Shown piece by piece: positions 9,044-29,695 of a stretch of 35,234 nucleotides of DNA (positions are counted from its first letter, which is position 1; the number at the start of each line of letters is the position of its first letter). The translations under genes and the position numbers were made by a program. The notes beneath the pieces are model-generated. The model did not search any database, had not been told where the DNA came from, and worked only from the letters and a program-made list of their open reading frames with translations. Source of the DNA: Kiritimatiellia bacterium (GTDB taxonomy: Bacteria; Verrucomicrobiota; Kiritimatiellia; SLAD01); assembly GCA_007128275.1 (NCBI GenBank), contig SKXR01000134.1, positions 1 to 35,234 on the forward strand, in the 5' to 3' direction.

Positions 9044-10023
9044 CCGTGCGCGTTTTGGGTGACGAGATCAAGCGGGTTTTCCTGACCGGGGGCGCCGGGT
9101 TTATCGGCAGTCACGTGGTGGATACGTTAATTCCGCAGGGTTACGAAGTCACCGTGTATGACAATCTATCGAACGGGCGCCGCGACTTCTTGGAGGCCCA
9201 TTTCGGGCACTCCGCCTTTCGTTTTGTGGAAGCCGACGTATTGGATCTGGCAACGTTGACGGAAGCGATGCGCGGTCATGATCTCGTCTGGCATTTGTCC
9301 GCGAACACGGACATCATCGGCAGTCATGAACAGCCCGACCGCGATCTCCGGGAATGCGTGGTGGGTACGTTCAATGTTGTTGAAGCCATGCGCCAGTGTG
9401 GGATTCAACCGCTGTTGTTCGCCTCCTCCGGCGCGGTGTATGGCGATCTATGTCATGATGTGTCGGTGTCCGAGGAGGCGGGGCCGTTGTTGCCCGTATC
9501 GACTTACGGTGCGGGCAAGATCGGGAGCGAGGCGTTCATTTCCTCGTATGGTCATGTATACGGCATCCACGCGTGGATATACCGTTTCGGAAACGTGGTT
9601 GGAGGCCGGATGACGCACGGCGTCATTTACGATTTCATCCATAAGTTCAAGAAGAACCCGAAGGAGCTCTTGATCCGGGGCGATGGACGGCAGGAAAAGA
9701 ACTACTTTCTTGTCGAAGAATGTATCGATGGCATGGCCTGGGGCTTTCGACATATACCGATGACCGAAGATAGCCCCTGCGATGTGTTCAACCTCGGCAC
9801 CACCACCGTGACCAGGGTGACGCTGATCGCAGACATTGTACGCGAGGAGATGGGGCTGCACGACGCCGAAATCCTGATTGAGGGCACGAAGAAGGCGTGG
9901 CCCGGGGATCAGCCGCGCGTGCATTTTACCGTGGATAAGATCAACACACTGGGGTGGAAAACCAAACACACGTCGGACGAATCGGTGCGTCTGGCCGTTC
10001 GGCGCATGATGGAGAAGGCGTGA
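9040..10023 (+). CDS. Extended SDR NDP-sugar epimerase/dehydratase (paralogue of the upstream gene)
   Basis: TGGAGFIGS, FASSGAVYG, YGAGK, YRFGNVVG, GDGRQEKNY; ATGA overlap. Confidence 0.9.
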   Translation: MTVRVLGDEIKRVFLTGGAGFIGSHVVDTLIPQGYEVTVYDNLSNGRRDFLEAHFGHSAFRFVEADVLDLATLTEAMRGHDLVWHLSANTDIIGSHEQPDRDLRECVVGTFNVVEAMRQCGIQPLLFASSGAVYGDLCHDVSVSEEAGPLLPVSTYGAGKIGSEAFISSYGHVYGIHAWIYRFGNVVGGRMTHGVIYDFIHKFKKNPKELLIRGDGRQEKNYFLVEECIDGMAWGFRHIPMTEDSPCDVFNLGTTTVTRVTLIADIVREEMGLHDAEILIEGTKKAWPGDQPRVHFTVDKINTLGWKTKHTSDESVRLAVRRMMEKA

Positions 10024-10141: not shown

Positions 10142-11452
10142 ATGAGTCACATTGCCGTCATAGGTCTTTGGCATCAGGGCATCGTCGGTGCGGCCTGTCT
10201 GGCCGAGGCGGGACACAGCGTGCGCGCCGCAGGCGCGGATGAATCCGTATTGCGTGGTTTGCGGGATGGCAAGGCGCCCATATACGAGCCGGGCTTGGAT
10301 GATTTGCTGACGCAGGAATTGAAGTCGGGGCGACTGACCTTTCCCGACAGCCTGGAAACGGCCGTTCAAGGAGCCGACGTTGTCCTGCTCATGCACGACA
10401 CGCCCGTTGACGAGAAGGACCAAAGCGATCTGACTCCGCTATACAGCGACATGGACCGGATGATCCCGTCGTTGGATGACGGGGTTGTGATATATGCGAC
10501 GGCACAGGTGCCGGTGGGCACGTGCGATGAGATAGGCGCCCGGATTCGCGCCAGGCGTCCTGACCTGAAATTCGGGATGGCCTACAGTCCGGAAAATCTG
10601 CGCCTGGGTCAGGCGATCGAACGCTTCAAGCAGCCGCCTCTTCCGGTCATCGGCGCTGATGAGGACTGGGTCTTTGAGCGGGTCGAGGCGTTGTGGTCCA
10701 TCCATGCCGTGAAATGGGAGCGCGTCAACCTGCGCACGGGTGAAATGGTAAAGCATGCGCTGAACACGTTTCTGGCCACGACGATCACGCTCGGCAATGA
10801 GCTTGGCAATTTGTGCGACGAGGTCGGTGCTGACGGTCACCGGTTGACGGAAGTGCTGCGGCTGGAACCGCGCGTCGGTCCAAAAGCAATGCTCTTTCCG
10901 GGGTTGGGCTTTGCCGGGGGAACCTTGGCGCGTGACGTACAAACGTTGCGCGGGTTGGGCGACGGCGCACAGCTGGAAACGCCGCTCCTGGACGGGTTAT
11001 GGGCGTCCAACGAACAACAGAATAGTTTGGTGGAACGGAAACTGAACAGGCTTTTCGGCGGCTCACTCAAGGGGCGTGTCGTGACGATTCTGGGACTCAC
11101 CTACAAACCCGACACCAGCACACTACGCCGATCGGCCGCCGTCGCGGTGGCCGAGGCGCTTCATTCGGGCGGGGCGACGGTGCGCGCGACGGACCCGAAA
11201 GCGGATCGGACCGAGCTCGGCACCCATGCATGGTTGGCATTCTCGGAGGATCCCTATGAGGCGGCGCGCGACGCCGATGCGGTGGTCTTGATGACGCCGT
11301 GGAAGCAGTATCACGATATTGATCCCGCGCGAATGGCTTCGGTGATGAAGGGGCGGGGAGTGCTCGACACCGCCAACCTCTGGAAGGCAGAATCATGGAT
11401 CGAGCAGGGTTTCACGTATCTGGATATCGGCCGTGGACGGCGAAGCGGATAG
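10142..11452 (+). CDS. UDP-glucose/GDP-mannose dehydrogenase family protein lacking the catalytic Cys (LmbL-like role proposed)
   Basis: GLWHQG Rossmann variant, PIYEPGL, YSPENLRLG, EMVKHALNTFLA, GLGFAGGTLARD (Thr at the Cys position), LGLTYKPDTSTLRRS. Confidence 0.88.
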   Translation: MSHIAVIGLWHQGIVGAACLAEAGHSVRAAGADESVLRGLRDGKAPIYEPGLDDLLTQELKSGRLTFPDSLETAVQGADVVLLMHDTPVDEKDQSDLTPLYSDMDRMIPSLDDGVVIYATAQVPVGTCDEIGARIRARRPDLKFGMAYSPENLRLGQAIERFKQPPLPVIGADEDWVFERVEALWSIHAVKWERVNLRTGEMVKHALNTFLATTITLGNELGNLCDEVGADGHRLTEVLRLEPRVGPKAMLFPGLGFAGGTLARDVQTLRGLGDGAQLETPLLDGLWASNEQQNSLVERKLNRLFGGSLKGRVVTILGLTYKPDTSTLRRSAAVAVAEALHSGGATVRATDPKADRTELGTHAWLAFSEDPYEAARDADAVVLMTPWKQYHDIDPARMASVMKGRGVLDTANLWKAESWIEQGFTYLDIGRGRRSG

Positions 11453-11585
11453 CATGCATCTTGAGTTGGAAGGCGTCTTTCGGTGTGTCCTCCACGCCTT
11501 TACCGGTGCGGATTCGTAGCCGCCGCGGTGACGCGATGGACGCCTTGCGCGGGAGACCGTGCGGATATGGAAGCGGGAGTAGTGT

Positions 11586-12605
11586 ATGAAAGTATCTATT
11601 GTAGGAGCAGGATTACAGTGTCGCCGGCGTGCGCCGTCCGTAGGCGCCGTTAAAGGCGCGCAACTGGTGTCGATCTCCAGTCTGCACCGCGAGCATGCGG
11701 AGGCGGAAGCCGCAAAGTACGGTGTGGAATCCGACGACAACTGGCAGGCCACGCTCGCCCGCGATGACGTGGACGTGATCTTTGTCTGCACCCCGCCTTC
11801 GTCACACGCCGAGATTTCCATCGCGGCCATGCGCGCGGGGAAACATGTCCTTTGCGAAAAGCCGCTGACCAAGACGCTCGAAGAAGCGGAAGAGATGATC
11901 CGCGTTAGCCGGGAGACGGGAAAGGTCCTCAAATGCGGGTTCAATCATCGGCATCATCCCGCCATCTGGGAGGCGCATCAGCGGTTGCAGGCCGGAGAAC
12001 TCGGGACGCCCATGTTTGCCCGTTGTCGCTATGGCATCTGCGGTCGGCCGGGGTATGAAAACGAATGGCGCGCCGATCCCGAACAGGCGGCGGGCGGTCA
12101 GTTCATCGAGCAGGGCACGCATGCCATGGATCTGTTCCGATGGTTTCTTGGGGATCTTGTCGAGGTGGCGTGCATGTCGTCTACTCACTATTTTACCAAA
12201 CAACCCATGGAGGATGGCGGTATGGCCCTGTTTCGCGCGGGCAACGGTGCGACCGCCACCCTGCATACTTCGTTGACCCAATGGAAGAACCTGTTTTCCT
12301 TCGAGGTGTTCGGGGCCGACGGCTATATTCAAGTCGAAGGATTGGGGGGCGGTTACGGCACGGAAACGCTGGCCATCGGTCGGCGGGACTTCACGGCGCC
12401 GTTTCAGGATCAGAACATTTACTATCGCGGCGGGGACAAGTCGTGGGAAGCCGAATGGAAAGAGATGGCGGCGGCCATCGAGGCGGGGCGTGAGCCGATC
12501 GGTAACGGGACGGACGGTTTGGAAGCGATGCGTATCGCGTTGACCGCCTATCAGGCGGAGAAACAACATGCCACCCTGCCGATTCCGCATGGAGACATCG
12601 CGTGA
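11586..12605 (+). CDS. Gfo/Idh/MocA family NAD(P)-dependent oxidoreductase (LmbZ/CcbZ-like role proposed)
   Basis: IVGAGLQ, VCTPPSSH, AGKHVLCEKP, GFNHRHHP, WRADP..GGQFIEQGTHAMD. Confidence 0.9.
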   Translation: MKVSIVGAGLQCRRRAPSVGAVKGAQLVSISSLHREHAEAEAAKYGVESDDNWQATLARDDVDVIFVCTPPSSHAEISIAAMRAGKHVLCEKPLTKTLEEAEEMIRVSRETGKVLKCGFNHRHHPAIWEAHQRLQAGELGTPMFARCRYGICGRPGYENEWRADPEQAAGGQFIEQGTHAMDLFRWFLGDLVEVACMSSTHYFTKQPMEDGGMALFRAGNGATATLHTSLTQWKNLFSFEVFGADGYIQVEGLGGGYGTETLAIGRRDFTAPFQDQNIYYRGGDKSWEAEWKEMAAAIEAGREPIGNGTDGLEAMRIALTAYQAEKQHATLPIPHGDIA

Positions 12606-13543
12606 AGAGTCTCGTGACGGGCGCATCGGGCTTCATCGCCAAGCACTTGATTCGACGGTTGTTGGCGGACGGGACGCAGACGGTGGCGTGGTCGCGCGGG
12701 TCGGCGCCAAAGGAACTGCGCCATGAATCGCTGGCTTGGCAAACCATCGACTTGCTGGATGCCGGCCAAGTAAACGATGCGATGGAGTCGGCGAAGCCGG
12801 ATCACGTGTTTCATCTCTCGGCGCAGTGTTTGCCCAAGGTTTCCTGGGAAGACCCGACCGGGACCTTTGATGCGAATGTGATCGGCACCATCCATCTCCT
12901 TAACGCGCTACAACGGCACGCCCCCAAAGCGCGCCTGATCCTGGCCTCGTCGAGTGCTCTCTACGCCCCCCATCCGGATCATCAACCGATACGGGAAGAT
13001 CATCCCCTTGAAGGAGCGAGCCTGTATGCGATCAGCAAGATGGCCCAAGAGATGACGGCCCGGATGTGGGGCAGGAAATACAACATGCCGGTCGTCACGG
13101 TACGCCCCTTCTTTGTCATCGGGCCTGAGAAACGGGGCGATGTCTGCGCCGATTTAGCGCAGCGCGTGGTTTATGCGGAGCGGTCGGAAGAACCCGTGAT
13201 CCGCGTGGGAAACCTCGCCGCCGTGCGTGATTTTGTCGACATCACGGATGCCGTGCAGGCGTTCCGTGTGATCGCCGAAAAAGGGGAACCGGATGGGGTG
13301 TATAATCTGGCACGCGGATCGGGATGGTCCGTTGGCGATGTGCTGGAGTACTATCGCATTTCGGCCATGAGCCCGTTGGAGATCAAGGTGGACCCGGCCC
13401 TATTGCGGCCGGTGGACGAGCCGGTAAAGATTGGAGACCCCTCGAAATTGCGCGCGCTCGGGTGGGAGCCGGCGGTCCCGGTGGAGATGGCCCTTGCGAA
13501 GATTCTGGATTATTGGCGAACTCAAGATCAGGCCGATGGCTGA
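12602..13543 (+). CDS. Extended SDR, GDP-4-keto-6-deoxy-sugar reductase (Rmd)/Gmd-like
   Basis: VTGASGFIA, PDHVFHLSAQ..SWEDP, ASSSALY, YAISK, VGNLAAVRDFVD, LLRPVDEP; GTGA overlap. Confidence 0.85.
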   Translation: MKSLVTGASGFIAKHLIRRLLADGTQTVAWSRGSAPKELRHESLAWQTIDLLDAGQVNDAMESAKPDHVFHLSAQCLPKVSWEDPTGTFDANVIGTIHLLNALQRHAPKARLILASSSALYAPHPDHQPIREDHPLEGASLYAISKMAQEMTARMWGRKYNMPVVTVRPFFVIGPEKRGDVCADLAQRVVYAERSEEPVIRVGNLAAVRDFVDITDAVQAFRVIAEKGEPDGVYNLARGSGWSVGDVLEYYRISAMSPLEIKVDPALLRPVDEPVKIGDPSKLRALGWEPAVPVEMALAKILDYWRTQDQADG

Positions 13544-14255
13544 AGACATACAAACAATCATTCTTGCGGGCGGGATGGGTACACGCATTCAATCCGTGGC
13601 CGGCGATCTGCCGAAATCGATGATCCCGGTGGCCGGTCGCCCCTTTATTGAACATCAATTGGAGCTGTTGCGTGTGAATGGCCTCAGCCAAGTGCTTCTG
13701 TTGACCGGGTATCGGGGGGAGCTGATTCAGCAACATGTCGGTGACGGATCGCGATGGGGTATGCGGGTGACGTACGTGCAGGAGGATCCGGACGCCTTGT
13801 TGGGAACCGGCGGCGCGTTGGTTCATGCGTTGCCCCATTTGGAGGCCCGATTTGTGACGTTGTACGGCGACTCCTATCTGCCTGTCGACTTCCAGTCCAT
13901 GATCGCATGGTACGATGGGCAGGACTGCCCCGCTGTGATGAGCGTGTTCCGCAATGAAGGGCAATGGGATCGGAGCAACGTGCGGGTGGAAGCGGGGCGC
14001 GTAGTCCATTACTCAAAAGCGTCAAAGCCGGGGGAGGCGGATCATATTGATTATGGGCTCTCTCTATTTACCCGAGAGATCATGGAATCGTACGCCCATC
14101 ATTCCATGCCGCTTGATCTGGCCGTCATACAAGGCGATCTGGTGGCGCGTGGACTCTTGGCCGCCTATCCGGTCACGCAACGCTTCTACGAAATCGGGAA
14201 GCCGGAAGGGTTGGCTGAACTCGAGGCGTATTTGACTTCAGGAGGCGTATCATGA
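13536..14255 (+). CDS. Sugar-1-phosphate nucleotidyltransferase (HddC/LmbO-like)
   Basis: IILAGGMGTRI, LPKSMIPVAGRPF, LLGTGGAL, YGDSYL, FYEIGKPEG; ATG at 13536 overlaps the upstream stop. Confidence 0.9.
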   Translation: MAEDIQTIILAGGMGTRIQSVAGDLPKSMIPVAGRPFIEHQLELLRVNGLSQVLLLTGYRGELIQQHVGDGSRWGMRVTYVQEDPDALLGTGGALVHALPHLEARFVTLYGDSYLPVDFQSMIAWYDGQDCPAVMSVFRNEGQWDRSNVRVEAGRVVHYSKASKPGEADHIDYGLSLFTREIMESYAHHSMPLDLAVIQGDLVARGLLAAYPVTQRFYEIGKPEGLAELEAYLTSGGVS

Positions 14256-14863
14256 AGAAGGCGGTATTTGTGGATCGGGACGGCACGCTCAACAAGATGG
14301 TGTATGACCAGACACACGGGCTCATGGACTCGCCGCGCAGGCCCGAACAGGTCGCGCTGATTCCGGGGGCGGGCCGTTTTCTGAAGGAGGTGCGTTTGCG
14401 GGGGTATCTCGCCGTGGTCGTCTCCAATCAACCCGGGCTGACGAAGGGCACCTTGACCCTCGATGAACTGAACGCCGTACATCGTCAGTTGGCGGAACTC
14501 CTGTTGGGCGAGGGAGGCGCATGGGACGATCTTTATTATGCCGCCTATCATCCCGATGGCGGGCCGGGTGCGTGCCGGGCCTATGAGGCGCAAAAAGAAT
14601 TTCGCAAGCCCGCTCCGGGCATGTTGCTGGATGCGGCGAAGAAACACGATATTGATCTCGCCGCGAGCTGGATGGTCGGCGACGGCATCGTGGATGTTCA
14701 GGCCGGGCGGGCGGCGGGATGTCGGACCGTTCTGGTCACGCAACTCAAGCTCGAGCAGTTGGAACAGTTTCAGAAACTCGAAAATGCCACCCCGGACGCC
14801 GTCGTGGCGGACTTGGCGGAAGCCTTCACGATCATCCAGCGCGGAGAAGTTCCGAGGCATTGA
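14252..14863 (+). CDS. gmhB: HAD-IIIA sugar-bisphosphate phosphatase (GmhB/LmbK-like)
   Basis: AVFVDRDGTLN, VVSNQPG, RKPAPGML, SWMVGDGIVDVQAG; GGAGG RBS, ATGA overlap. Confidence 0.88.
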   Translation: MKKAVFVDRDGTLNKMVYDQTHGLMDSPRRPEQVALIPGAGRFLKEVRLRGYLAVVVSNQPGLTKGTLTLDELNAVHRQLAELLLGEGGAWDDLYYAAYHPDGGPGACRAYEAQKEFRKPAPGMLLDAAKKHDIDLAASWMVGDGIVDVQAGRAAGCRTVLVTQLKLEQLEQFQKLENATPDAVVADLAEAFTIIQRGEVPRH

Positions 14864-14895
14864 CCCGGATGCGCGTTTATGCGATAGGTACAGCC

Positions 14896-15849
14896 ATGTC
14901 GCGAATCTTGTCTATCTGCGTTCCCGTCTTCAATGAGAAGGATAATGTTTCTCACGTAGTGCAGGAAGTCGAACGAGTATTTGCCGATGAACTTTCACGG
15001 TACCAACTCGAAATAGTCTTCACGGACAATGCTTCGACCGACGGCACCTGGGAGATGATCCGGGAACTTGCCAAGACCAAACCGCATATTCGGGGATATC
15101 GATTCTCCCGCAATTTCGGGTATCAGAACTCCATCTTTGCAGGCCTGTCGATGGCCACCGGGGATGCCATCATCGAATTGGACGCCGATCTGGAGGATTC
15201 TCCCCGGGTGATCCCGAAATTCGTCAAGGAATGGGAGGCCGGCTATGACGTCGTTTACGGCGTGCGTTCCAAGCGCCATGAACCGTGGATGATGCGCTCG
15301 TTATTTTCCCTCTTTTACTGGCTGATGAACCGCATTTCCGACATCGAGATCCCCCGGCAAGCCGGGGACTTTCGACTGATCGATCGCAAGGTGGCAAACA
15401 TGTTGACGAGTCTGGGGGAGCGGAATCTGTATCTGCGGGGGTTGGTGTCCTATCTCGGATTCAAACAGAAAGCGGTCCCGTATGAACGGGATCCTCGCGC
15501 CGCGGGCCAAAGTAAATTCAACCTCCTGCGATATGTCATCATGGGCGTGGACGCGCTGACGGCCTTCACGAAGACCCCGTTACGCATGATCGGCCTGCTG
15601 GGGGTGGTCTTGTTTATCCTTTCCATGGCGTTGGCGGCGAATTTCTTCTTTGGCAAGATCTTTCATGGGGTTCCGGTTCAGGGCTTTACCACGCTGGTCG
15701 TCCTCATCCTCTTCCTGCACAGCATGACCTTCATCTTCCTGGGGGTCTTGGGAGAGTACCTCAGTCGTGTGTTCGACGATGCCAAGAACCGTCCGCGCGC
15801 GATTATTGCAGAGTCGACACATGGCGGCGACTTTCCCCGGGCGTTGTGA
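14896..15849 (+). CDS. Polyprenol-phosphate glycosyltransferase, GT2 (GtrB/ArnC/YkcC-like)
   Basis: SICVPVFNE, DNASTDGT, FSRNFGYQ, LDADLEDSP, GYDVVYGVR, GDFRLIDR, two C-terminal TM helices, GVLGEYLSR; ATG at 14896. Confidence 0.9.
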   Translation: MSRILSICVPVFNEKDNVSHVVQEVERVFADELSRYQLEIVFTDNASTDGTWEMIRELAKTKPHIRGYRFSRNFGYQNSIFAGLSMATGDAIIELDADLEDSPRVIPKFVKEWEAGYDVVYGVRSKRHEPWMMRSLFSLFYWLMNRISDIEIPRQAGDFRLIDRKVANMLTSLGERNLYLRGLVSYLGFKQKAVPYERDPRAAGQSKFNLLRYVIMGVDALTAFTKTPLRMIGLLGVVLFILSMALAANFFFGKIFHGVPVQGFTTLVVLILFLHSMTFIFLGVLGEYLSRVFDDAKNRPRAIIAESTHGGDFPRAL

Positions 15850-17078: not shown

Positions 17079-18374
17079 TCACGGCTCGATATACAGTTCC
17101 ACATCCTTTCGCAAGGTCACGCCGAATTCGTTCCATCCAATGACAGCCACATAGACGCGGCCCGGTCGATAGGCTGTCAATGGCCTGTTGCCGGAATACC
17201 AGCCATTGTCCTCCAGAGAGAGGTCCCACTCGAGCGGAGGAAGCGGTTCCTGATACATCAACACACGGACTCCGGCATTGGTTCCAAATCCTTCCAAGCT
17301 CACGTCGTGGACGCGCACATACAGCGACTCGTCACGGTAGAAGTGTGTCACGTCGGCATCGCCGTCCGCCCTATTCGAGAAACCGATGAACAGGACGTGC
17401 CGGGAGGGTGTGGAGTCGAGAACCCCTCTGTCGACATCGCGTGTTCCCGGTCCGGCGATTTCGGGAAGGGCAGGGCGGGAAATGGGTCCCCCTGTATGCG
17501 GGGCGTACTCAGGAGTAGAAGAAGCCTCCATGGCCGACGGTCGCATTTCGCTTGCCGTCATAGGGGCTGTTTCTATGGAGCTGCTACTCAGGAGACCGGC
17601 CAAATCAGTTTCCGTAAGCACTCGGTTGTAGATTCGGATGTCATCGAGGCGTCCATAGAAGTAGGGACGGGGATTCCCGTTCTGGTCAATAAAGCCCGCG
17701 CCAATGATGAGGTCCGCAGAAGTAAATAAGTCATATGAGCCTACGGCCTGTCTCTTGACTCTTGTCCCATTAATAAACAGCTCGCCCACCCCTTGGTTTC
17801 GGTCATAGGTCACCATCATGTGATGCCACTGTAAGGGGGGCGGATCGGCAAAGCTGATGACGCGTTCGAGCCGGTCTTGGCGGCCATCCGCCCCGATCAA
17901 ATGCGTGCCTGTACCCAAACCCCGCCATTGGTAGCCATGCACATGGGACCATATCTGCGGTCCAAGTCGGATCGGTAATCGGGTGGTATCGACCCAGCTC
18001 ACCAAGGGCAACTGATCCTGATAGGCAGACACATAGAAGAACAAGGAAACCGTCAACTGATCCTGAATAGCAAGCGACTCGCTAGCGGGAACACGGATAT
18101 AGTTACTCGCGCCGTCAAAGGAAAAGGATCCGCCGATGCTCCCTTCCGGATGGAATTGAGCCCCGTGTATGACGCCATCATTTCCATGCCTGCTATGATC
18201 ACGGACCAAGGAAGTTTCTTCGGCGTCAAATGGGAAATGAAGGACCAGGCCGTCGGTTGCAACCCCTTCGGATGCATGGCACCACGTCGTCAGGACAATG
18301 AATGCGACCCGCAGGCTGTTTCGAGCGCCGGCAACGGCCGGCATGGAACGAGTAGCATATGAAGCACGTTTCAT
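17079..18374 (-). CDS. Secreted LamG/concanavalin-A-like lectin-domain protein with Pro/Ser/Thr linker and C-terminal beta-rich domain
   Basis: Signal-like N-terminus, GLVLHFPFD..DHSRHGNDG, FSFDG, WHHMMVTYD, LFING, FYGRLDDIRIYNRVLT. Confidence 0.82.
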   Translation of the reverse strand: MKRASYATRSMPAVAGARNSLRVAFIVLTTWCHASEGVATDGLVLHFPFDAEETSLVRDHSRHGNDGVIHGAQFHPEGSIGGSFSFDGASNYIRVPASESLAIQDQLTVSLFFYVSAYQDQLPLVSWVDTTRLPIRLGPQIWSHVHGYQWRGLGTGTHLIGADGRQDRLERVISFADPPPLQWHHMMVTYDRNQGVGELFINGTRVKRQAVGSYDLFTSADLIIGAGFIDQNGNPRPYFYGRLDDIRIYNRVLTETDLAGLLSSSSIETAPMTASEMRPSAMEASSTPEYAPHTGGPISRPALPEIAGPGTRDVDRGVLDSTPSRHVLFIGFSNRADGDADVTHFYRDESLYVRVHDVSLEGFGTNAGVRVLMYQEPLPPLEWDLSLEDNGWYSGNRPLTAYRPGRVYVAVIGWNEFGVTLRKDVELYIEP

Positions 18375-18415: not shown

Positions 18416-19468
18416 CTACGAGCCGACGTATCGGGCTTCGTCAATCAGTTCGTGCATCAACTCGACCACCCGCAGGCCTTCGTGTGCGTTCATCCCTTGC
18501 AGGCAGTCTTCGCCCTGCATGGCGCGATAAAACCGCCGCACCACTTCATCGTTCCCGTAATGATGCTTCTTCCGGAGGTACCGAAAACCGCCGGTCAGCA
18601 CGCCGCGAAAGTGCTGGCCGGCGCCGGTCAGGCTTGTCCATAGAATGTCCTTTGCGCTGTGCACCCCGTCGTTGGGCAATCGCACATAGATGTCGCGCCA
18701 CACGTCAATGTCTGCAGTGGCCTTTTCCCCGACGACGGTCACATGCCATTCCGTAATGCTTGCGTCGAAATTGATATGGAGGAACACGGGAAACCCGTCC
18801 GGTGCGCGGTATTCCGCGTTGACGGCGCGCGGGGTGTTCCGGCCTTCCATCGCAGCTTGCCAGACGGTAGAAGAGACGAGGTCGATCTCTCCCCCGGTCA
18901 GGCATCGAAACATGTAGTAGAAGTGAGGGGCCTCGTCATAGAAGAGTCCTAGCGGCAGACGGTCGCACCAGTCCGGTATATTCCGTTTATGATTGCACAA
19001 TTGAACGCCATACACCGCCTTGATGGAACCTATCCGTTCCCGTTCGACGTCGTCCAGGAACGATCGGGCGGCCCGCCCGAACTGGAAGTTATGGACCACG
19101 GCGAGGACGCGTTGTTGGTCTTCAGCGAGCGCGATGAGTTGGCGTGCGTCTTTCGGATCGACCGTCATGGGTTTCTCGGTCAGCACATGCTTCCCCGCAC
19201 GCAGCGCCGCGTCAGCGATCGTATGGTGGACGTGCGGAATCGTCCCGATCATGACGGCATCGGTATCGGCCAACCAACCCTTTGAGAAGTCCAAGTCCGT
19301 GGTGTGATTGGCAATGCCATGACGAACGGCCGTTTGCCGTGCCCGGTCGGCCTTATCAGAAACGACGCCCAAGATGTGATACAATCCGGACTTCTGCAAG
19401 GCGTTGAGGTGGCGGTTGTTTGCGACCCAGCCACCGCCGATACTGGCGATCTTCACTCGTGGGTTCAT
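18416..19468 (-). CDS. Gfo/Idh/MocA family oxidoreductase
   Basis: IGGGWVA, IGTIPHVH, AGKHVLTEKP, VVHNFQF, GLFYDEAPH. Confidence 0.88.
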   Translation of the reverse strand: MNPRVKIASIGGGWVANNRHLNALQKSGLYHILGVVSDKADRARQTAVRHGIANHTTDLDFSKGWLADTDAVMIGTIPHVHHTIADAALRAGKHVLTEKPMTVDPKDARQLIALAEDQQRVLAVVHNFQFGRAARSFLDDVERERIGSIKAVYGVQLCNHKRNIPDWCDRLPLGLFYDEAPHFYYMFRCLTGGEIDLVSSTVWQAAMEGRNTPRAVNAEYRAPDGFPVFLHINFDASITEWHVTVVGEKATADIDVWRDIYVRLPNDGVHSAKDILWTSLTGAGQHFRGVLTGGFRYLRKKHHYGNDEVVRRFYRAMQGEDCLQGMNAHEGLRVVELMHELIDEARYVGS

Positions 19469-20574: not shown

Positions 20575-21396
20575 ATGAATTGGGCACGCCTCTATCAACG
20601 CTTTGAACAATCTCCCGTCTGGGCCTGGGTATGGCGGACTTTGCGCTTGCCCCGTGTAGTCAACGCCTTTCTTAGGCGGGTCCCCCTGCGACGCACGCAC
20701 GGCGCATTTCGATGGCGTGCGCGCGATATAGAGAGTTTCATTCTGGCCCACGAAATATTGGGATCACCCATGAAATATGATGTGTCGCTTTTCCCGTCCC
20801 CGATACGGACGTTTATTGATCTTGGTTGTCATGCCGGATACTTCACCGGCCTCCTTCAACAGATCTCCGGTTCGACGTGCCGAGGTCTGATGGTGGACGC
20901 CAACCCCGACATGATTCGTGAAGCCGAATGGCACATCCGGGAAAATGGGTGGGAAGGAGTACGTGCCATCTGGGGGCTCGCCGGGAATAGCGAGGCGGAG
21001 GGCGATGCGCCTTTTTTCATTCATCGTTGTTCCGTGTGCTCCTCCTTATATACCAATGCCAGCTGGTTTGAGGACAAACCGGTTCGGGAATTGCGGGTTC
21101 CTTCACTCCGTGTCGGCGAATTGTGGGAAACGCACAATCCCGGATTGACGGTGGACCTGCTTAAAGTGGATATCGAGGGGGCGGAACTCACATTCATAAA
21201 AAACGAGCAAGAATTACTGAAGCGGACTCAGACAATTCTTCTTGAGTGGCACACGTACGCCTGTGATCTTTCCGAAATCGACTCGATGCTGGAAGGCCTC
21301 GGCTTTGTTCGCGGAGCGTGTTTAGAGAAGGAGAAAGAGGTCGAAACCTATCTGTATACGAGGGAAGCGAGTGCGATTTCGTCATTGCAGGAATAG
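20575..21396 (+). CDS. FkbM family SAM-dependent methyltransferase
   Basis: FIDLGCHAGYF, VDANP, VDLLKVDIEGAE, ILLEWH; GGAGG RBS before ATG 20575. Confidence 0.85.
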   Translation: MNWARLYQRFEQSPVWAWVWRTLRLPRVVNAFLRRVPLRRTHGAFRWRARDIESFILAHEILGSPMKYDVSLFPSPIRTFIDLGCHAGYFTGLLQQISGSTCRGLMVDANPDMIREAEWHIRENGWEGVRAIWGLAGNSEAEGDAPFFIHRCSVCSSLYTNASWFEDKPVRELRVPSLRVGELWETHNPGLTVDLLKVDIEGAELTFIKNEQELLKRTQTILLEWHTYACDLSEIDSMLEGLGFVRGACLEKEKEVETYLYTREASAISSLQE

Positions 21397-21410
21397 GGAC
21401 GCGAGAACCC

Positions 21411-23456
21411 ATGAATCGTAAACAAATAGCTTGGTGCTTGATCCCCGTGGTGCTTGGGGGAGTCTATTTCCGCCTTGCGGGGCTGGGCGATGCGGCATTA
21501 CGCGCCGATTCCATAGAATTATGGCGGATTTGCCAACAACCAATCACGGGGTCGGTCATATTCACCAACTGGTTTGACCTGATGGGGGTGACCGGACAGT
21601 TTCCATTTCAAGCAGCCTTCACCCGGTGGGTCTTGGATGTGCTTTCACTTCCGCTGAATCATTTCACCTTCCGGTTTCCCTCGGCTTTGTGGGGGATCCT
21701 GACGATTATCGCCGCATATGGTTTGGGGAAATCCGTGCGCGACGAACGCGCGGGGCTGCTATTGGCGGCCCTCGTTGCGAGTAATCCGTTTCATATCCAA
21801 ATATCGCGCGAGGCCTATTTCTATTCCCCGCTCGTGTTGGGGGCGTGTTTATCCGCGTGGGGCGCTGTCTGGGCAATTCGCCGATGGCAGGAAGGCGCGC
21901 CGAAGCCCCTTCGCCATAACCTTGGTTTCATAGCCTTGAATATTTCAGGATTCTTCCTGCTGACCTACAGCCAGCCGACGGGATGGGCGTTGGCGTTGGC
22001 CTGCAGCGCAACCGTAATGGTCCTGGAAGTCATGCGGGTTACCGGAATACGCCGTCTGGACTGGGCCTTCACCGGGATGGCCTCCGGATATATCGCGGTT
22101 GGCTTGCCGCTTCTCTTGGCTCCGTGGGCCTTGCGCCAAGTCTTGCAGATATCGCGCGCCGAAGCACGCGAGGTCACGGAACTGGCGCTCGTCGCCACCA
22201 CCGATACGGTGTGGACCATGAGCTATCGGACGATCACGTCCTTTGCATGGGGCGGTACGGCATGGCGCGCTTCACTGTCGATCGTGGCGCTTGTAGCGGG
22301 GTTGTACGTCGTAGCGCGTCACTGGAAGGCTCGAAAACACCAACTCTTTCTTCCGGCCCTGATCACTGTTGGCCTTCTGAGTTTTCTTCATGCGCGCGCA
22401 CAGGCCGGCGCCCTGTTCGAAACAAGGTATGTTCTGGGATTGCTTCCGGCCTATCTCGCGTTGTTGACATTGGGATTGTTACATCTGGGCGAGGTGCTCG
22501 CGCGTCTCCGGCCTGGATGCAACCAAACGCTCTGTTACGCCCTCGTGCTGGGGGTAGGGATCGTGCCCGGTCTTTATCCCGCGTATCTTTGCACCCGGCA
22601 GACCGGTCAGCCGACGCCGTATAAGGAGATCGCCAAATGGTTTGACACCCAAATGCCGGAGGGGATTCCCGTCCTCGTCGATCGTTGGTTTGAACCGTGG
22701 AACGAATTGCGCGTCTACGATTCAGAGAATGTGGAGTTTACATTTACCATCCCCAATGAGCCCGTGAATGTGTTTCTGCAATACGATTGGCGCGGAACCG
22801 CTGAATCGTTCTTCCGTGCAAATCCCGATGCGGCTTATCTCGAAATCGCCAAGTCTTATTGGAACGTGCCGGCGGTGGGGCCGTGGGAGTGGCCCCGGGA
22901 ATACTTCACCCACTCAACATCCATCGTCAATCATGCCGGCGTCAAGTTGAGGGAATTGGGTCTGGCCAATCGTAGTGATTATTACGGGCCCTATACGAAT
23001 CACGTTGTTGTGGAAATATTCTACAATACCCGCGAGGATGTGCTGGAAAAGCTGAAGCTATCCCAGGTGCCGTATTTCACATTCTACGACGAAGGCTGGC
23101 GATATATGAAATCCGGACCGTTCGGGTTCCTTGAATTGCAATCCCAGCAGATGGTCGACTGGCGAGCGATGAAGGAACGGGCGGTTCTCCATGTGGCGAA
23201 TCTGACGGATGAGACTGCGCGTGTGGTCGTACGGATTCAAGGAGTGGCCTTGGATGGAACCAAATCCATGGTGGCCAACGATCAGTTCCGAATGCAGTTT
23301 CGACCGGGCACGATGGAGGCGTGGATGATCGGGCCCATCGACTTGCCGCCGGGTATCACGGAAGTCACGTTACGCGATCAGCGTGGCGCACAGTCGAGGG
23401 CGCGGTTACTGGTCCAAAGTGCGGTCGTTCAACCCGTGGAAAGGGAAAGCCCATGA
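21411..23456 (+). CDS. GT-C fold membrane glycosyltransferase (ArnT/PMT-like) with large C-terminal extracytoplasmic domain
   Basis: YFRLAGLG..LRADS, RFPSALWGILTI, GLLLAALVASNPFHIQISREAYFYS, ETRYVL; many TM helices. Confidence 0.82.
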   Translation: MNRKQIAWCLIPVVLGGVYFRLAGLGDAALRADSIELWRICQQPITGSVIFTNWFDLMGVTGQFPFQAAFTRWVLDVLSLPLNHFTFRFPSALWGILTIIAAYGLGKSVRDERAGLLLAALVASNPFHIQISREAYFYSPLVLGACLSAWGAVWAIRRWQEGAPKPLRHNLGFIALNISGFFLLTYSQPTGWALALACSATVMVLEVMRVTGIRRLDWAFTGMASGYIAVGLPLLLAPWALRQVLQISRAEAREVTELALVATTDTVWTMSYRTITSFAWGGTAWRASLSIVALVAGLYVVARHWKARKHQLFLPALITVGLLSFLHARAQAGALFETRYVLGLLPAYLALLTLGLLHLGEVLARLRPGCNQTLCYALVLGVGIVPGLYPAYLCTRQTGQPTPYKEIAKWFDTQMPEGIPVLVDRWFEPWNELRVYDSENVEFTFTIPNEPVNVFLQYDWRGTAESFFRANPDAAYLEIAKSYWNVPAVGPWEWPREYFTHSTSIVNHAGVKLRELGLANRSDYYGPYTNHVVVEIFYNTREDVLEKLKLSQVPYFTFYDEGWRYMKSGPFGFLELQSQQMVDWRAMKERAVLHVANLTDETARVVVRIQGVALDGTKSMVANDQFRMQFRPGTMEAWMIGPIDLPPGITEVTLRDQRGAQSRARLLVQSAVVQPVERESP

Positions 23457-24849: not shown

Positions 24850-26067
24850 GTGAGTGATATGCTGAAGCAAAAAGAGATTGTGGTTATCGGCGGCTGCGGG
24901 CATGTGGGCTTGCCGCTTGGAATCAAACTGGAGTTGGCCGGCGGAAAGGTGTCGCTCATTGATCTGAATGAGAAAGCCGTGGGTATGGTCAACGCGGGCA
25001 CGCTCCCGTTCGTGGAGGATGGGGGAGAAACGCAGCTCCGTGACGCCTTGGCAAAAGGACTGAAAGCCACAACCGACCCGGCACCGTGCAAGACGGCCGA
25101 TGTTTGTATCTTCGTGACGGGGACCCCCGTGGACGAACATCTCAAGCCGAAGCTGTCGGAATTGAATGACGTGGTGGCGCAATACCTTCCGCAGATACGC
25201 AAAGACGCGCTGGTCATTATGCGTTCCACCCTGTTCCCGGGGACGATGTCTTATATCGCGGAACGCATCAAGAGTACCCGTCCGGACCTTTTGTTGGCCT
25301 TCTGTCCCGAACGCGTAGCACAGGGTAAGGCGCTTAAGGAAATTGAGTCGCTTCCCCAAATTGTTTCCGCATTTGACGAGGCCTCATTCCAGGCCGCCTA
25401 TGAAATCTTCAGGGCCTTGGCGCCGTCCGTCATTCGTTTGACGCCCTTGGAAGCGGAGGTGACCAAGGTCATGGCGAATGCGTGGCGCTACATCGAGTTT
25501 GCCATTGCCAACCAGTTTTATGTCATTGCCGACAGCAACGGGGTGGACTTTCAACGCGTCTATCAAGCGTTGCGCTATGACTACCCGCGCGCGGCTGGGT
25601 ATAAGGCGCCGGGCTTTGCCGGCGGCCCCTGTCTATTCAAGGATACGATGCAACTCGCCAGCTTCGATGAACAACAGTTTCATCTGGGGCACACCGCCAT
25701 GTTGGTGAACGAAGGATTGGCCTCTTTTGCCGTGAAGAAGTTGTCGCGCATGTTCGACTCTTCGTTGAAGGGGGTGACGGTGGGTATTCTGGGAATGACC
25801 TTCAAGGCGGGAGACGATGACACGCGTAATTCATTGAGCTTTCGTGTTCGCAAAGAACTCGATTTCGGCGGGGCCGAGGTGCTGTGCCATGATCCGTTTC
25901 AGTCCGACGGTCCCTCCCTCGAGGAAGTGCTGGAGAAGGCGGATGCATTTATCCTTTGCACGCCGCACAAAGAGTATCGGGGTCTGGACATCACGAAGCC
26001 CGTGGTGGACGTTTGGGGATTGTTGCATCAATCGGAAATCGAGATATTACCCGGCCGTAAGGGATAA
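24850..26067 (+). CDS. Nucleotide-sugar 6-dehydrogenase (WecC/WbpO-like branch)
   Basis: GGCGHVGLP, MRSTLFPGT, FCPERVAQG, EVTKVMANAWRY, GFAGGPCLFKD (Cys intact), LGMTFKAGDDDTRNS. Confidence 0.9.
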   Translation: MSDMLKQKEIVVIGGCGHVGLPLGIKLELAGGKVSLIDLNEKAVGMVNAGTLPFVEDGGETQLRDALAKGLKATTDPAPCKTADVCIFVTGTPVDEHLKPKLSELNDVVAQYLPQIRKDALVIMRSTLFPGTMSYIAERIKSTRPDLLLAFCPERVAQGKALKEIESLPQIVSAFDEASFQAAYEIFRALAPSVIRLTPLEAEVTKVMANAWRYIEFAIANQFYVIADSNGVDFQRVYQALRYDYPRAAGYKAPGFAGGPCLFKDTMQLASFDEQQFHLGHTAMLVNEGLASFAVKKLSRMFDSSLKGVTVGILGMTFKAGDDDTRNSLSFRVRKELDFGGAEVLCHDPFQSDGPSLEEVLEKADAFILCTPHKEYRGLDITKPVVDVWGLLHQSEIEILPGRKG

Positions 26068-27196: not shown

Positions 27197-29695
27197 ATGA
27201 AGAATAGAGAACATTACGAAACACCTCGCGTCCGGGGGTTGTCCGCCCACAATTATTTCCTGCTCGGCATCGTCGGGTTGGCGCTGTTGGTCTGCCGGAA
27301 CGTGCTCTTGCCTGATCGCGTGCTGTTTACTACGGACGACAATATCGGTCATATGTATATGTGGAAGAATATGCTTCCCTATGGGTGGTGGGCTGGCTGG
27401 TATGACTCCGAACTGTTGGGTTCGGCCAGTCCGGTAATGTTCAACTTAACCACGTTCCTGCTCTACCTCCTCCCTGCGGGCTTCTTCAATAATTGGATCA
27501 ATATCTTCGATCTAGTGGTCGGTTCCTTTTTCTTGATGCGTTTTCTTCGACTGCGTCACCTCTCCTGGAGCGCCTGCGCCTTGGGTGTTCTGACCACGTA
27601 TTGGGTGGGCAGCAATTTCACGCTGATCTATGCCGGCCATATTGGGAAGTTTGGCATTCTGCTTTGGGTCCCCATCTTCCTGTGGCTTACCGAAAAGGCC
27701 TTGCAGCGCGACTCGCTGCGCCATGCTTTGCTCGCGGGCGGTGCGCTGGGCGCAACCTTCCTCGAGCAGGCGGATGTGGCCTTCTTCTTCGCGCTGGCCC
27801 TGGGACCCTATGCCTTGTTTGCGTGGTGGCGGACCTTCGGACGCTGGGACGGAAGGCTCGTGCGTTTTGCCGTCGTGCTCTTCGGCACCGCCATCCTGTT
27901 GGCTGTGCATCCGCTGTTGAGCGGTTATCAGGCTGCCGTAGAAGGGGTGAGCTCCGTGCAGGAAGAGGATCCTGCGGCCAAATGGGAGTTTGTGACACAG
28001 TGGAGTTGGCCGCCGGAAGAGTCCATCGATTTCATTGCGCCCGGATTTACCGGATGGCGAACCGGAGAACCGACCGGCCCGTACACCGGTCGGATGGGGC
28101 GCTCCGCGGGATGGGAAGAAACCGGGCAGGGTTTCCAGAATTTCAAATTGGAGAATCAGTATATTGGCGCCCTTCCGATTCTGTTCGCGATCATGGCCCT
28201 GTTCCTCGTTTGGCGACGTCGCGCCCCGGAGCATGCCAAGCGCGAGATCTACTTCTGGTTCTTGGTCACGGTGCTTGCCTTGCTCTTGTCGTTTGGTAAG
28301 TATTTCCCGCTCTATGCGCTGTTCTATCAGTTGCCCATCGTCTCTTCCGTCCGGAATCCAAATAAGTTCCTCCAAGTGTTCCAACTTGCGTTGGGTATCC
28401 TTTCCGCATACGGGTTGCATGAACTGTTGCGGCAATCCGTTGCCGATGGCGGCAAGGCGTTGCGCTTTCGCGATATCCGGCCGGTGGCCATGGGCGGCTT
28501 ACTGGTCGGCGTAGTGTTGATCGTCTGGGGCATCGGATCGATGGCGGCCTGGGATTCGTTGGTCGACCGATTTGCCCAGGCGGGGTGGGGGCGCGCGGCA
28601 ACCGTGATTGTCGAGAATCGAGTATGGGCGCTTTTGCACGGTGGCGTCATGGCCTGTCTCGGAGTGGCGATGTGGTACTTGCTCACGGCACAGCGTAGGC
28701 CGGGCGTGCGGGCGCCAACGATCATGGCATGGAGCCTGATCGGCGTGGTGATCGTTGACGTACTGTTCCTTTCCAGGCATTACGTGCAGACCGTTGAAGC
28801 CACGGCCTTTGAGTCGAATCCTGTCATCGAAAGGATTCGCGCGGATCGTTCCGGCTCCCGTGTGGCCCTTGTGACGCAGGAGGGATTCTACAACCAATGG
28901 CTTTCTCAACTCTTCCCGTACCACGACATCAAGACCATCAATGTGGCGCAGATGCCGCGTATGCCGATCGCCTATCAGCAGTATCTTGCGGCAGTGGGTG
29001 GCAATCCCATACGGCACTGGGAATTGGGCGCGGTGGGTTATATTCTGGGGCCAGCCCATATCTGGAACCAGATTACGAATGAACCGACTCTCCAAGACCG
29101 TTTCGAACTGTTTTTTGCGTATACCACGGAACCCATAGCTGGGGGTGTCCGAGTCATTCCAGCGACGGAACAACGTCCGGGACAGCACGTGTTGCTGCGT
29201 CACCTTGCACCGCATCCCCGATACGCCTTGGTCGCCGGGTGGGAGGTCATGGACGATGCCGCTGCGCTGAGACGTTTGGCATCGCCGACATTTACTCCGT
29301 TTGAACAGGTATTGATCGCTTCGGATTCGGTTTCGGAAGGGTTTCCCGAACCGGAAGGACAAGGCATAAGCGGTTCGGTCCGAACGGTCCGGTACCGTCC
29401 AGGCTATGTCCAATTACGCGTATCGGCTGAGGAACCCTCGATCCTGCGTTTGGCCGATAAGCACAACCCGCACTGGAAGGCCGAGGTAAACGGTGTCCCC
29501 GTACCCGTGCTGCGGGTCGATTATCTGATGCAGGGGGTGTATGTCGCACCGGGACTCCACGATGTGACGCTGCGCTATGCGCCGCCCACCGTGACCTTGT
29601 GGGTACAAGGCCTTGGCATGGCCCTTTGTGTCGGCGCCCTCATCCTGCTCCTGCGGGAACGTGTCCATGGCTTGCCACCGTCTCCCTCATCATGA
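27197..29695 (+). CDS. YfhO-like GT-C membrane glycosyltransferase
   Basis: 832 aa polytopic protein, FTTDDN acidic loop, YIGALPILFA, SFGKYFPLY..VRNPNKF, C-terminal PHWKAEVNG..LRVDYLMQGVYVAPGLHDVTLRY plus final TM helix. Confidence 0.85.
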   Translation: MKNREHYETPRVRGLSAHNYFLLGIVGLALLVCRNVLLPDRVLFTTDDNIGHMYMWKNMLPYGWWAGWYDSELLGSASPVMFNLTTFLLYLLPAGFFNNWINIFDLVVGSFFLMRFLRLRHLSWSACALGVLTTYWVGSNFTLIYAGHIGKFGILLWVPIFLWLTEKALQRDSLRHALLAGGALGATFLEQADVAFFFALALGPYALFAWWRTFGRWDGRLVRFAVVLFGTAILLAVHPLLSGYQAAVEGVSSVQEEDPAAKWEFVTQWSWPPEESIDFIAPGFTGWRTGEPTGPYTGRMGRSAGWEETGQGFQNFKLENQYIGALPILFAIMALFLVWRRRAPEHAKREIYFWFLVTVLALLLSFGKYFPLYALFYQLPIVSSVRNPNKFLQVFQLALGILSAYGLHELLRQSVADGGKALRFRDIRPVAMGGLLVGVVLIVWGIGSMAAWDSLVDRFAQAGWGRAATVIVENRVWALLHGGVMACLGVAMWYLLTAQRRPGVRAPTIMAWSLIGVVIVDVLFLSRHYVQTVEATAFESNPVIERIRADRSGSRVALVTQEGFYNQWLSQLFPYHDIKTINVAQMPRMPIAYQQYLAAVGGNPIRHWELGAVGYILGPAHIWNQITNEPTLQDRFELFFAYTTEPIAGGVRVIPATEQRPGQHVLLRHLAPHPRYALVAGWEVMDDAAALRRLASPTFTPFEQVLIASDSVSEGFPEPEGQGISGSVRTVRYRPGYVQLRVSAEEPSILRLADKHNPHWKAEVNGVPVPVLRVDYLMQGVYVAPGLHDVTLRYAPPTVTLWVQGLGMALCVGALILLLRERVHGLPPSPSS

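Follow-up and report, generated by a model that had tools for sequence, protein, structure and literature searches.

What does a homologue of UDP-glucose 6-dehydrogenase make when it lacks the catalytic cysteine of its family? The question is raised by a gene at positions 10142..11452 of a 35,234-nucleotide stretch of DNA from a Kiritimatiellia bacterium (GenBank assembly GCA_007128275.1, contig SKXR01000134.1), the whole of which is called the window below. The 436-residue product is a member of the UDP-glucose/GDP-mannose dehydrogenase (UGDH) family with threonine in place of the cysteine, and we refer to it and its cysteine-less relatives as Thr-type. This gene encodes a neofunctionalised branch of UDP-glucose dehydrogenase, and the product of the cassette in which it sits is probably an unusual deoxygenated cell-surface sugar of seven or eight carbons, not a sugar acid. 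The cassette is widespread and biochemically unstudied, with the lincosamide sugar pathway as its sole studied analogue.

A cysteine-less branch of the UDP-glucose dehydrogenase family

The three-domain architecture of the family is present at full length in the 436-residue protein (UDPG_MGDP_dh domains PF03721, PF00984 and PF03720; N-terminal 4.1e-31, central 8.1e-18, C-terminal 1.5e-27). The family model TIGR03026 matches at 268 bits (cut-off 189.8), and the equivalog models for named dehydrogenases all fall far under their cut-offs, for example TuaD with 268 vs 700 bits. The closest solved relatives are the UDP-glucose dehydrogenases 4a7p (residues 3-434, E 1.3e-66) and 3gg2. The first-pass annotation of this DNA had described an intact, full-length UGDH homologue in which an ACC codon at 10922-10924 replaces the catalytic Cys by Thr, and all of this was confirmed. 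The open reading frame (ORF) has no internal stop and is as long as its family homologues, and the codon encodes Thr261. In a three-way alignment Thr261 of the motif GFAGG-TLARD shares its column with the Cys of the other UGDH-family proteins of the window, Ugd 4160..5608 and 24850..26067 (GFAGGPCLFKD), and it also aligns to the Cys of 4a7p (GYGGSCFPKD) and 3gg2. The Cys of GxGGxCxxKD is absent, and so is the Glu of PEFLxEG, a motif replaced by P150-E-N-L-R-L-G156 with L155 at the Glu position. The canonical GxGxxG loop is not kept either: the GLWHxG motif proposed earlier is real and reads G8-L-W-H-Q-G13, with Trp for the second Gly, and the Asp of the 4a7p motif VCVD has become Gly. The catalytic Lys/Asn helix, K204-H-A-L-N208, is retained as had been claimed, with His for the usual Tyr.

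Both of the other UGDH-family genes keep the Cys, which places three paralogous nucleotide-sugar dehydrogenases within 35 kb. The 405-residue protein of 24850-26067 is nearest to UDP-ManNAc dehydrogenase models, yet lies under their cut-offs.

The replacement is shared by a large set of relatives. Among the best 120 homologues from a collection of 5.8 billion proteins (57-74% identity to the window protein; organisms named as Kiritimatiellia, Verrucomicrobia, Isosphaeraceae and Lentisphaerota), all 120 have Thr within GF[AS]GGTLARD. A wider search matched 22,723 proteins among 50%-identity cluster representatives, and the best 150 were aligned with the query. Over these 151 rows position 261 is Thr in 131, Cys in 15, Asn in 2, and Ser, Asp and His in one each. 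Other changes go with it. Trp stands at position 10 in 94% of the Thr-type rows, whereas the Cys-type rows have Gly in 100%; of the 128 Thr-type rows without a gap at position 155, 126 have Leu there, and the 15 Cys-type rows have Glu (11) or Gln (4). The full signature, written as Thr-type/Cys-type residue, comprises columns 10 (W/G), 11 (H/Y), 93 (D/G), 122 (Q/T), 152 (N/F), 155 (L/E or Q), 205 (H/Y), 260 (G/S), 261 (T/C), 263 (A or G/P), 264 (R/K), 321 (Y/F) and 327 (T/D). Residues G8, G13, E151, K204, N208, D265, N290, K322, R329 and D351 are kept in both types alike; K204 and N208 reach 100% and K204, N208 and D265 together 99-100% in either set, and G8, G13, the TP motif, E151, K204, N208 and D265 are conserved at 86-100%. 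Gene decay was considered and rejected, given Thr in 120/120 best homologues and in 131/151 rows, with the co-varying changes fixed.

In a FastTree phylogeny of 138 near-full-length rows (13 fragments dropped, root not established), the Cys-type rows group with two odd rows in a single clade (support 1.0), and the Thr-type proteins are therefore one side of a single split. Judged from the aligned residues, the change from Cys to Thr is a fixed one in a selected branch, far beyond chance.

In UGDH enzymes the Cys forms the thiohemiacetal and the thioester and the Glu of PEFLxEG serves hydrolysis, while the first hydride transfer is the task of the Lys, aided by Asn and Asp. Set against the residue pattern, this enzymology indicates that what the clade has lost is precisely the second half-reaction, the first being retained. 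The earlier expectation that uronic acid is unlikely to be formed is thus borne out, since the Cys and the PEFLxEG Glu are both gone, and Lys204, Asn208 and Asp265 are invariant or nearly so. In comparison with the canonical UDP-glucose 6-dehydrogenases 4a7p, 3gg2 and 2y0c, the Thr-type protein has the same three-domain fold, about 35-40% identity over its full length and the same Lys, Asn and Asp, but differs in Cys to Thr, PEFLxEG Glu to Leu, the second GxGxxG Gly to Trp and at least seven further fixed substitutions; four-electron oxidation to the acid is therefore not expected. We regard it as almost certain that this is a real, selected enzyme whose product is not a uronic acid. Automated annotation does miscall such proteins, as had been predicted: homologues carry the source name 'UDPglucose 6-dehydrogenase'.

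Four of five long Thr-type representatives that were scanned are fusions, in either order, with a classical short-chain dehydrogenase/reductase (SDR; adh_short), and the fifth (P0181) is a fusion with GT2; the fusions with a classical SDR tie the clade to a redox partner. No Gfo/Idh/MocA fusion occurs among these five, and longer forms were not searched separately.

A conserved cassette around the Thr-type gene

Contigs of a one-genome-per-species collection were scanned with the pattern [GAP]F[AMG]G[GA]TL[AG]RD and 80 loci were kept. For gene context, the stop-to-stop ORFs of these loci within 9 kb were scored with the cassette proteins of the window (Table 1) and one adh_short domain; 51 loci with at least 4 kb on both sides make up the full-flank subset. 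The Gfo/Idh/MocA gene, which had been reported to adjoin the Thr-type gene, does so in the window, beginning 133 nt downstream, and the pairing is conserved, with Gfo in 66 of the 80 loci and 45 of the 51 full-flank loci. An adh_short SDR occurs in 62 and 42 loci, respectively, and Gfo or adh_short in 49 of the 51. The remaining counts (all loci, then full-flank) are 55 and 45 for the GHMP kinase, 52 and 41 for the nucleotidyltransferase, 52 and 39 for the transaldolase, 50 and 41 for the SIS isomerase, and 44 and 34 for the HAD phosphatase.

The commonest order is extended SDR, Thr-type, adh_short, Gfo, GHMP kinase, nucleotidyltransferase, SIS isomerase, HAD phosphatase and transaldolase, and it is complete on a plasmid of Rhizobium jaguaris. 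The order in the window is SIS isomerase, transaldolase, GHMP kinase, SDRa, SDRb, Thr-type, Gfo, SDRc, nucleotidyltransferase and HAD phosphatase. The core of this order, SDRb - Thr-type - Gfo - SDRc, is found again in L001, L005, L007, L010, L020, L031 and L061 and in the class-level relatives L082 and L086; a gene of the GalE-like SDRb type precedes the Thr-type gene in many loci, and Gfo follows the Thr-type gene in four of the seven class-level relatives that have the latter. The Gfo of the window variant is a high-scoring subtype, at 320-512 bits to the window Gfo vs approximately 200-260 bits for Gfo proteins encoded after adh_short. A link between the GLWHQG subtype and the absence of adh_short was rejected, as adh_short is present in four of six loci with Q at that position. 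The window cassette is a reductase-terminated, glycan-directed, adh_short-lacking variant of the widespread cassette.

Table 1. Cassette genes of the window and the diagnostic sites of the Thr-type protein
Feature	Position	Strand	Basis
SIS-domain sugar-phosphate isomerase, distant GmhA relative	5673..6299	+	PF13580; GmhA model 61 vs 320 bits
Transaldolase	6303..7037	+	PF00923 3.5e-41; TIGR02134 332.7 bits vs cut-off 281.95
GHMP sugar kinase, distant HddA relative	7034..8059	+	Pfam; HddA model 126.7 vs 600 bits
SDRa, GalE-like extended SDR (epimerase type)	8075..9043	+	Pfam Epimerase 6.5e-46; PDB 3ehe E 1.5e-75
SDRb, GalE-like extended SDR, paralogue of SDRa, directly 5' of the Thr-type gene	9040..10023	+	Pfam; PDB 3ehe E 1.1e-76
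Thr-type (cysteine-less) UDP-glucose/GDP-mannose dehydrogenase family protein, 436 aa	10142..11452	+	Pfam; TIGR03026; PDB 4a7p
G8-L-W-H-Q-G13, Rossmann GxGxxG with Trp for the second Gly	10163..10180	+	Sequence and alignment
P150-E-N-L-R-L-G156, replacing PEFLxEG	10589..10609	+	Alignment to 4a7p
K204-H-A-L-N208, catalytic Lys/Asn retained, His for the usual Tyr	10751..10765	+	Alignment
Thr261 codon ACC, column of the catalytic Cys	10922..10924	+	Alignments
Gfo/Idh/MocA oxidoreductase partner, 339 aa	11586..12605	+	PF01408 1.1e-27; PF22725 1.4e-24; PDB 2glx E 8.7e-34
SDRc, Rmd-like extended SDR, candidate keto-reductase	12602..13543	+	Start overlaps Gfo stop; PDB 2pk3 E 1.6e-56
Sugar-1-phosphate nucleotidyltransferase	13536..14255	+	PF00483; mannose-1-P guanylyltransferase model 4e-28 and HddC model 5.1e-25, both below cut-off
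HAD-IIIA phosphatase, GmhB-like	14252..14863	+	Pfam; NF006506 111.4 vs 178 bits

The Gfo partner keeps the EKP motif and has E175-x-x-x-H179 where 2glx has Asp-x-x-x-His; 120 homologues at 63-92% identity share many invariant columns (alignment A5). The same alignment contains invariant His- and Cys-rich stretches, CGFNHRHHP and RCRYGICGRPGY, the first Cys of the latter being invariant and the second nearly so; these stretches may belong to a metal site, an interface or the active site. The best PDB match of SDRc, 2pk3, is a GDP-6-deoxy-D-lyxo-4-hexulose reductase, followed by GDP-6-deoxy-D-mannose reductase and GDP-heptose 4,6-dehydratase. For the SIS, GHMP, HAD and nucleotidyltransferase proteins the best named matches are the heptose enzymes GmhA, HddA, GmhB and HddC, all below their NCBIfam equivalog cut-offs (61 vs 320, 126.7 vs 600, 111.4 vs 178 and 88.4 vs 300 bits). 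The nucleotidyltransferase probably begins at ATG 13536, judging from its MAEDIQTIILAGG start, the ORF being listed from TTG 13431.

Comparison with the lincosamide pathway

For lincomycin, Table 2 of PMC4351081 names as octose-building enzymes the transaldolase LmbR, the isomerase LmbN, the kinase LmbP, the phosphatase LmbK and the guanylyltransferase LmbO, and describes LmbL as 'C8 dehydrogenase', LmbM as epimerase, LmbZ as oxidoreductase and LmbS as aminotransferase; an extract of PMC12945683 has LmbM, LmbL, CcbZ and CcbS converting GDP-octose to GDP-lincosamide. By the enzyme-family descriptions in these excerpts, the lincomycin and celesticetin pathways resemble the window in encoding a UGDH-family protein, a Gfo/Idh/MocA protein and an SDR epimerase together, and lincomycin, at family level only, in having a transaldolase, isomerase, GHMP kinase, phosphatase and guanylyltransferase-type enzyme alongside. 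The window has at least one member of each Lmb enzyme family in Table 2 of PMC4351081 save the aminotransferase. It differs in that an LmbS/CcbS-like pyridoxal phosphate (PLP) aminotransferase is absent and an Rmd-like keto-reductase follows instead, and in being part of a surface-glycan locus, not of an antibiotic cluster; this locus includes GT2, GT4 and GT-C genes and belongs to a metagenome-assembled genome (MAG) of the Planctomycetes-Verrucomicrobia-Chlamydiae (PVC) type. The literature listings and abstracts searched describe neither a cysteine-less UGDH clade nor the cassette outside lincosamides.

The first-pass annotation had called the two adjacent genes an LmbL/LmbZ-like dehydratase pair. 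The conserved pairing with Gfo, the lincosamide enzyme families around it and the Rmd-like reductase next to it speak for this; the missing LmbS-like aminotransferase does not. By analogy, the LmbL/LmbZ-like pair is the best available reading, though only partly supported.

The proposed chemistry also recalls GMD followed by Rmd, in that transient oxidation, water loss and reduction of a keto-deoxy GDP-sugar would succeed one another and the third window gene is Rmd-like. Here, however, two unrelated folds (UGDH-like and Gfo/Idh/MocA) would carry out the dehydration in place of one extended SDR, and it would take place on the side chain (C6/C8), not at C4/C6. The pathway to GDP-D-glycero-alpha-D-manno-heptose (GmhA, HddA, GmhB, HddC) has the same four families as the window cassette; the window proteins differ in lying far under the equivalog cut-offs, and the cassette has a transaldolase and the Thr-type/Gfo module in addition. 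In the WbpA/WbpB route a Cys-type 6-dehydrogenase works alongside an aminotransferase and an acetyltransferase. A UDP-GlcNAc 6-/3-dehydrogenase route of that type was rejected for the window, where the dehydrogenase is Thr-type and the cassette has no DegT and no sugar N-acetyltransferase.

Proposed function and competing explanations

Taken as a whole, the locus is best explained, by analogy, by an LmbL/LmbZ-like two-protein dehydratase followed by keto-reduction, an explanation in which our confidence is evenly divided. The transaldolase, SIS isomerase, GHMP kinase, HAD phosphatase and nucleotidyltransferase would make a GDP-activated higher sugar, and it is likely that the Thr-type enzyme acts on this sugar, the cassette's own. 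The UGDH scaffold would present the carbon attached to C5, and the Thr-type protein would oxidise the exocyclic C6 hydroxyl. In a heptose or octose this hydroxyl is secondary, and a single hydride transfer would therefore give a 6-ketone, with no call for Cys/thioester chemistry. The 6-ketone would acidify H7, so that the C8 hydroxyl could leave, and the Gfo/Idh/MocA protein would complete the dehydration or the reduction of the enone. Overall the side chain would lose water (6,8-dehydration), as a PNAS paper of 2020 reportedly describes for LmbL and CcbZ acting jointly on GDP-octose. That the pair is such a 6,8-dehydratase is, on the lincosamide analogy, about an even call. The Rmd-like SDR would then reduce the remaining keto group to yield a GDP-8-deoxy-octose rather than an amino sugar, and stereocentres would be set by the GalE-like SDRa and SDRb, in the manner of LmbM. 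A permanently bound cofactor is a speculative explanation for the Trp in the dinucleotide loop.

Several observations weigh against this explanation. Neither LmbL nor CcbL was named among the best 120 matches to the window protein or to five high-G+C Thr-type proteins, including those of Nocardia takedensis and Frankia; LmbL does not appear among the PDB matches of the Thr-type protein or by name among the 120 matches to the Gfo partner, nor a Streptomyces locus among the 80 kept. No PLP aminotransferase was found by Pfam among the 28 window ORFs scanned, and DegT aminotransferases are rare near the cassette, accounting for 2 of the 57 neighbouring ORFs that were scanned in related loci; the other 55 comprise GT2 (18), Glycos_transf_1 (GT1/GT4; 10), another glycosyltransferase-like protein (1), other families (10) and ORFs with no family at E <= 1e-15 (16). 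In most related loci an adh_short SDR lies between the Thr-type gene and Gfo, and the window, which has none, is therefore a minority variant. A true GDP-mannose 4,6-dehydratase (443 bits, above cut-off) is encoded beside an extended SDR on another contig of the source genome (G000 C154:5964-7703), which points to a separate classical GDP-deoxyhexose route and gives the Rmd-like enzyme a conceivable classical substrate source; an argument from an Rmd-like gene with no dehydratase to feed it is weakened accordingly. The transaldolase may also be the housekeeping enzyme here, because it is the sole PF00923 match in the 92.65%-complete source genome. Lastly, NAD binding could be altered or lost with Trp at the second Gly position of GxGxxG, and the substrate could be a heptose instead of an octose.

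This last point is the substance of one alternative, in which a divergent GDP-glycero-manno-heptose route supplies the substrate, the Thr-type protein modifies C6/C7 and the transaldolase does no more than feed sedoheptulose 7-phosphate; it can be combined with the dehydratase chemistry or with the plain oxidation described next. The GmhA, HddA, GmhB and HddC matches favour it, as does a transaldolase that is the only one found in the source genome. All four matches are nevertheless far below the equivalog cut-offs, the transaldolase is linked in 39/51 full-flank loci of many phyla although a heptose route needs none, and the same five families yield an octose in lincomycin (PMC4351081, Table 2). 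We consider a heptose substrate doubtful, if a serious contender. Rather unlikely in our judgement is a second alternative, under which the Thr-type enzyme only oxidises a hydroxyl of GDP-heptose or GDP-octose to a keto or aldehyde group, and Gfo and the SDR act as independent ketoreductases or epimerases, giving an epimer or another oxidation state but no deoxy sugar. The retention of the first-step residues K204, N208 and D265 with loss of those of the second step would suit such an enzyme, the solved Gfo/Idh/MocA relatives are plain dehydrogenases or reductases (1,5-anhydro-D-fructose reductase 2glx and sugar 3-ketoreductase 3rbv), and aminotransferases are rare near the cassette. Against this, an Rmd-like reductase of keto-deoxy GDP-sugars comes directly after the pair in the window, GalE-like epimerases are already in the cassette, and three or four redox enzymes are many for a simple epimerisation.

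The remaining alternatives bear on the Thr-type protein itself. It might be a non-catalytic or non-redox subunit that does not bind NAD, acting either as a scaffold or as a dehydratase (acid/base) subunit while Gfo does all hydride transfer. The Trp in 94% of Thr-type rows and the Gly at the VCVD Asp position point that way, and Gfo is the more conserved of the two proteins among PVC relatives (63-70% vs 57-62% identity). Yet G8, G13, the TP motif, E151, K204, N208 and D265 are conserved as in an intact active site and Rossmann core, and catalytic columns frozen across bacteria and archaea would be unexpected of a pure scaffold, which makes this improbable. An ordinary UDP-glucose or GDP-mannose 6-dehydrogenase, with Thr or another residue standing in for Cys, is scarcely credible: the full-length match above the TIGR03026 cut-off and the source names of homologues are what one would expect of it, but the loss of Cys and of the PEFLxEG Glu is a fixed signature of the clade, UGDH equivalog models such as TuaD score far under their cut-offs, and the window already has a Cys-type Ugd (4160..5608) and a Cys-type homologue (24850..26067).

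Further observations in the window

The 133-nt spacer between the Thr-type and Gfo genes has no unusual RNA structure (z -1.11), and promoter-like and terminator-like sites between 5500 and 15000 are at or under shuffle expectation. Directly after the HAD gene lies a GT2 gene (14719-15849, likely start ~14899) whose product has a hydrophobic C-terminal tail; a GT2 of approximately 320-350 residues recurs near the cassette in related loci (the 18 of 57 ORFs given above). Farther downstream the window encodes a membrane glycosyltransferase of the PMT_2/PMT type and a large protein that matches YfhO weakly (21318-23456, 27197-29695). The GT2, PMT_2-type and YfhO-like proteins together suggest that a sugar is passed on a polyprenyl-phosphate carrier to an acceptor outside the cytoplasm. 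In the region of 18416-19468 (-) and 17079-18374 (-), on the opposite strand, a second and divergent Gfo/Idh/MocA gene adjoins a Laminin_G_3/concanavalin-like protein and a GT4; it is not of the subtype associated with Thr-type genes.

Distribution of the Thr-type gene

At least 599 stretches match the pattern used in the scan, and 573 of them were confirmed. The 80 loci retained derive from Chloroflexota, Kiritimatiellia, Verrucomicrobiota, Planctomycetota, Lentisphaerae, Acidobacteriota, Alpha-, Beta-, Gamma- and Deltaproteobacteria, Myxococcota, Bdellovibrio and Elusimicrobia, from single MAGs of Firmicutes and Conexibacteraceae, from the Candidate Phyla Radiation (CPR; Gottesman-, Paceibacter-, Nomura- and Taylorbacteria) and from the archaeal Micrarchaeota, Altiarchaeales and Nitrosopumilaceae. 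Cultured organisms named among the carriers are Nocardia takedensis and a Frankia, together with Rhizobium jaguaris, which has the gene on plasmid pRCCGE525c, and Lawsonia intracellularis, which has it on plasmid 3.

The two plasmid loci, L089 from Lawsonia intracellularis PHE/MN1-00 plasmid 3 (NC_008014.1) and L090 from Rhizobium jaguaris pRCCGE525c, have the Thr-type motifs GLWHLG, PENLRLG, KHAIN and GGTLARD, and both encode adh_short, Gfo, GHMP kinase, nucleotidyltransferase, SIS isomerase, HAD phosphatase and transaldolase beside the Thr-type gene. In Lawsonia an LPG-synthase-type membrane protein occupies the usual place of the extended SDR.

Among relatives of the source genome, the Thr-type gene was found at E <= 1e-100 in 8 of 41 genomes, the source's own included, in neither of two same-genus genomes (73-89% complete) and in one of 11 other same-family genomes. 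Its presence among relatives is therefore patchy, like that of an accessory glycan cassette. In a sample of 401 genomes from the phylum of the Conexibacteraceae MAG (L058), the best 30 places comprise 2 Thr-type (L091 and L092, the latter from genome G189, which is flagged unpublished), 22 Cys-type and 6 with no match to the regular expression; an E-value limit of 1e-70 does not separate Thr- from Cys-type, and the tally of 271/401 at this limit is uninformative on the Thr-type. The Conexibacteraceae MAG itself (G041) has three Thr-type profile matches, two of them above 430 bits and each of these with one in-frame TGA.

Significance

Thousands of Thr-type proteins are labelled UDP-glucose 6-dehydrogenase in databases, and that reaction is almost certainly beyond them. 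For enzymologists they are a natural experiment in which the UGDH active site has been cut back to a single hydride transfer, and for glycobiologists the locus provides a concrete nine- or ten-gene cassette to express. Carriers of this cassette range from CPR bacteria and the archaeal Micrarchaeota and Nitrosopumilaceae to plasmids of rhizobia and of Lawsonia intracellularis, a pig pathogen. Our broadest proposal is a tentative one, which we hold with somewhat less than even confidence: a transaldolase-primed activation unit and an ancient two-protein dehydratase of the side chain may together make GDP-8-deoxy-octoses for the surface glycans of hundreds of species of bacteria, CPR and archaea. 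The lincomycin sugar route would then be a late offshoot that gained an aminotransferase, and eight-carbon deoxy sugars would be a common, unrecorded building block of the cell envelope. If the dehydratase reading of the locus is right, a deoxygenation strategy known from one antibiotic pathway only would be a widespread route to higher deoxy sugars of the cell surface.

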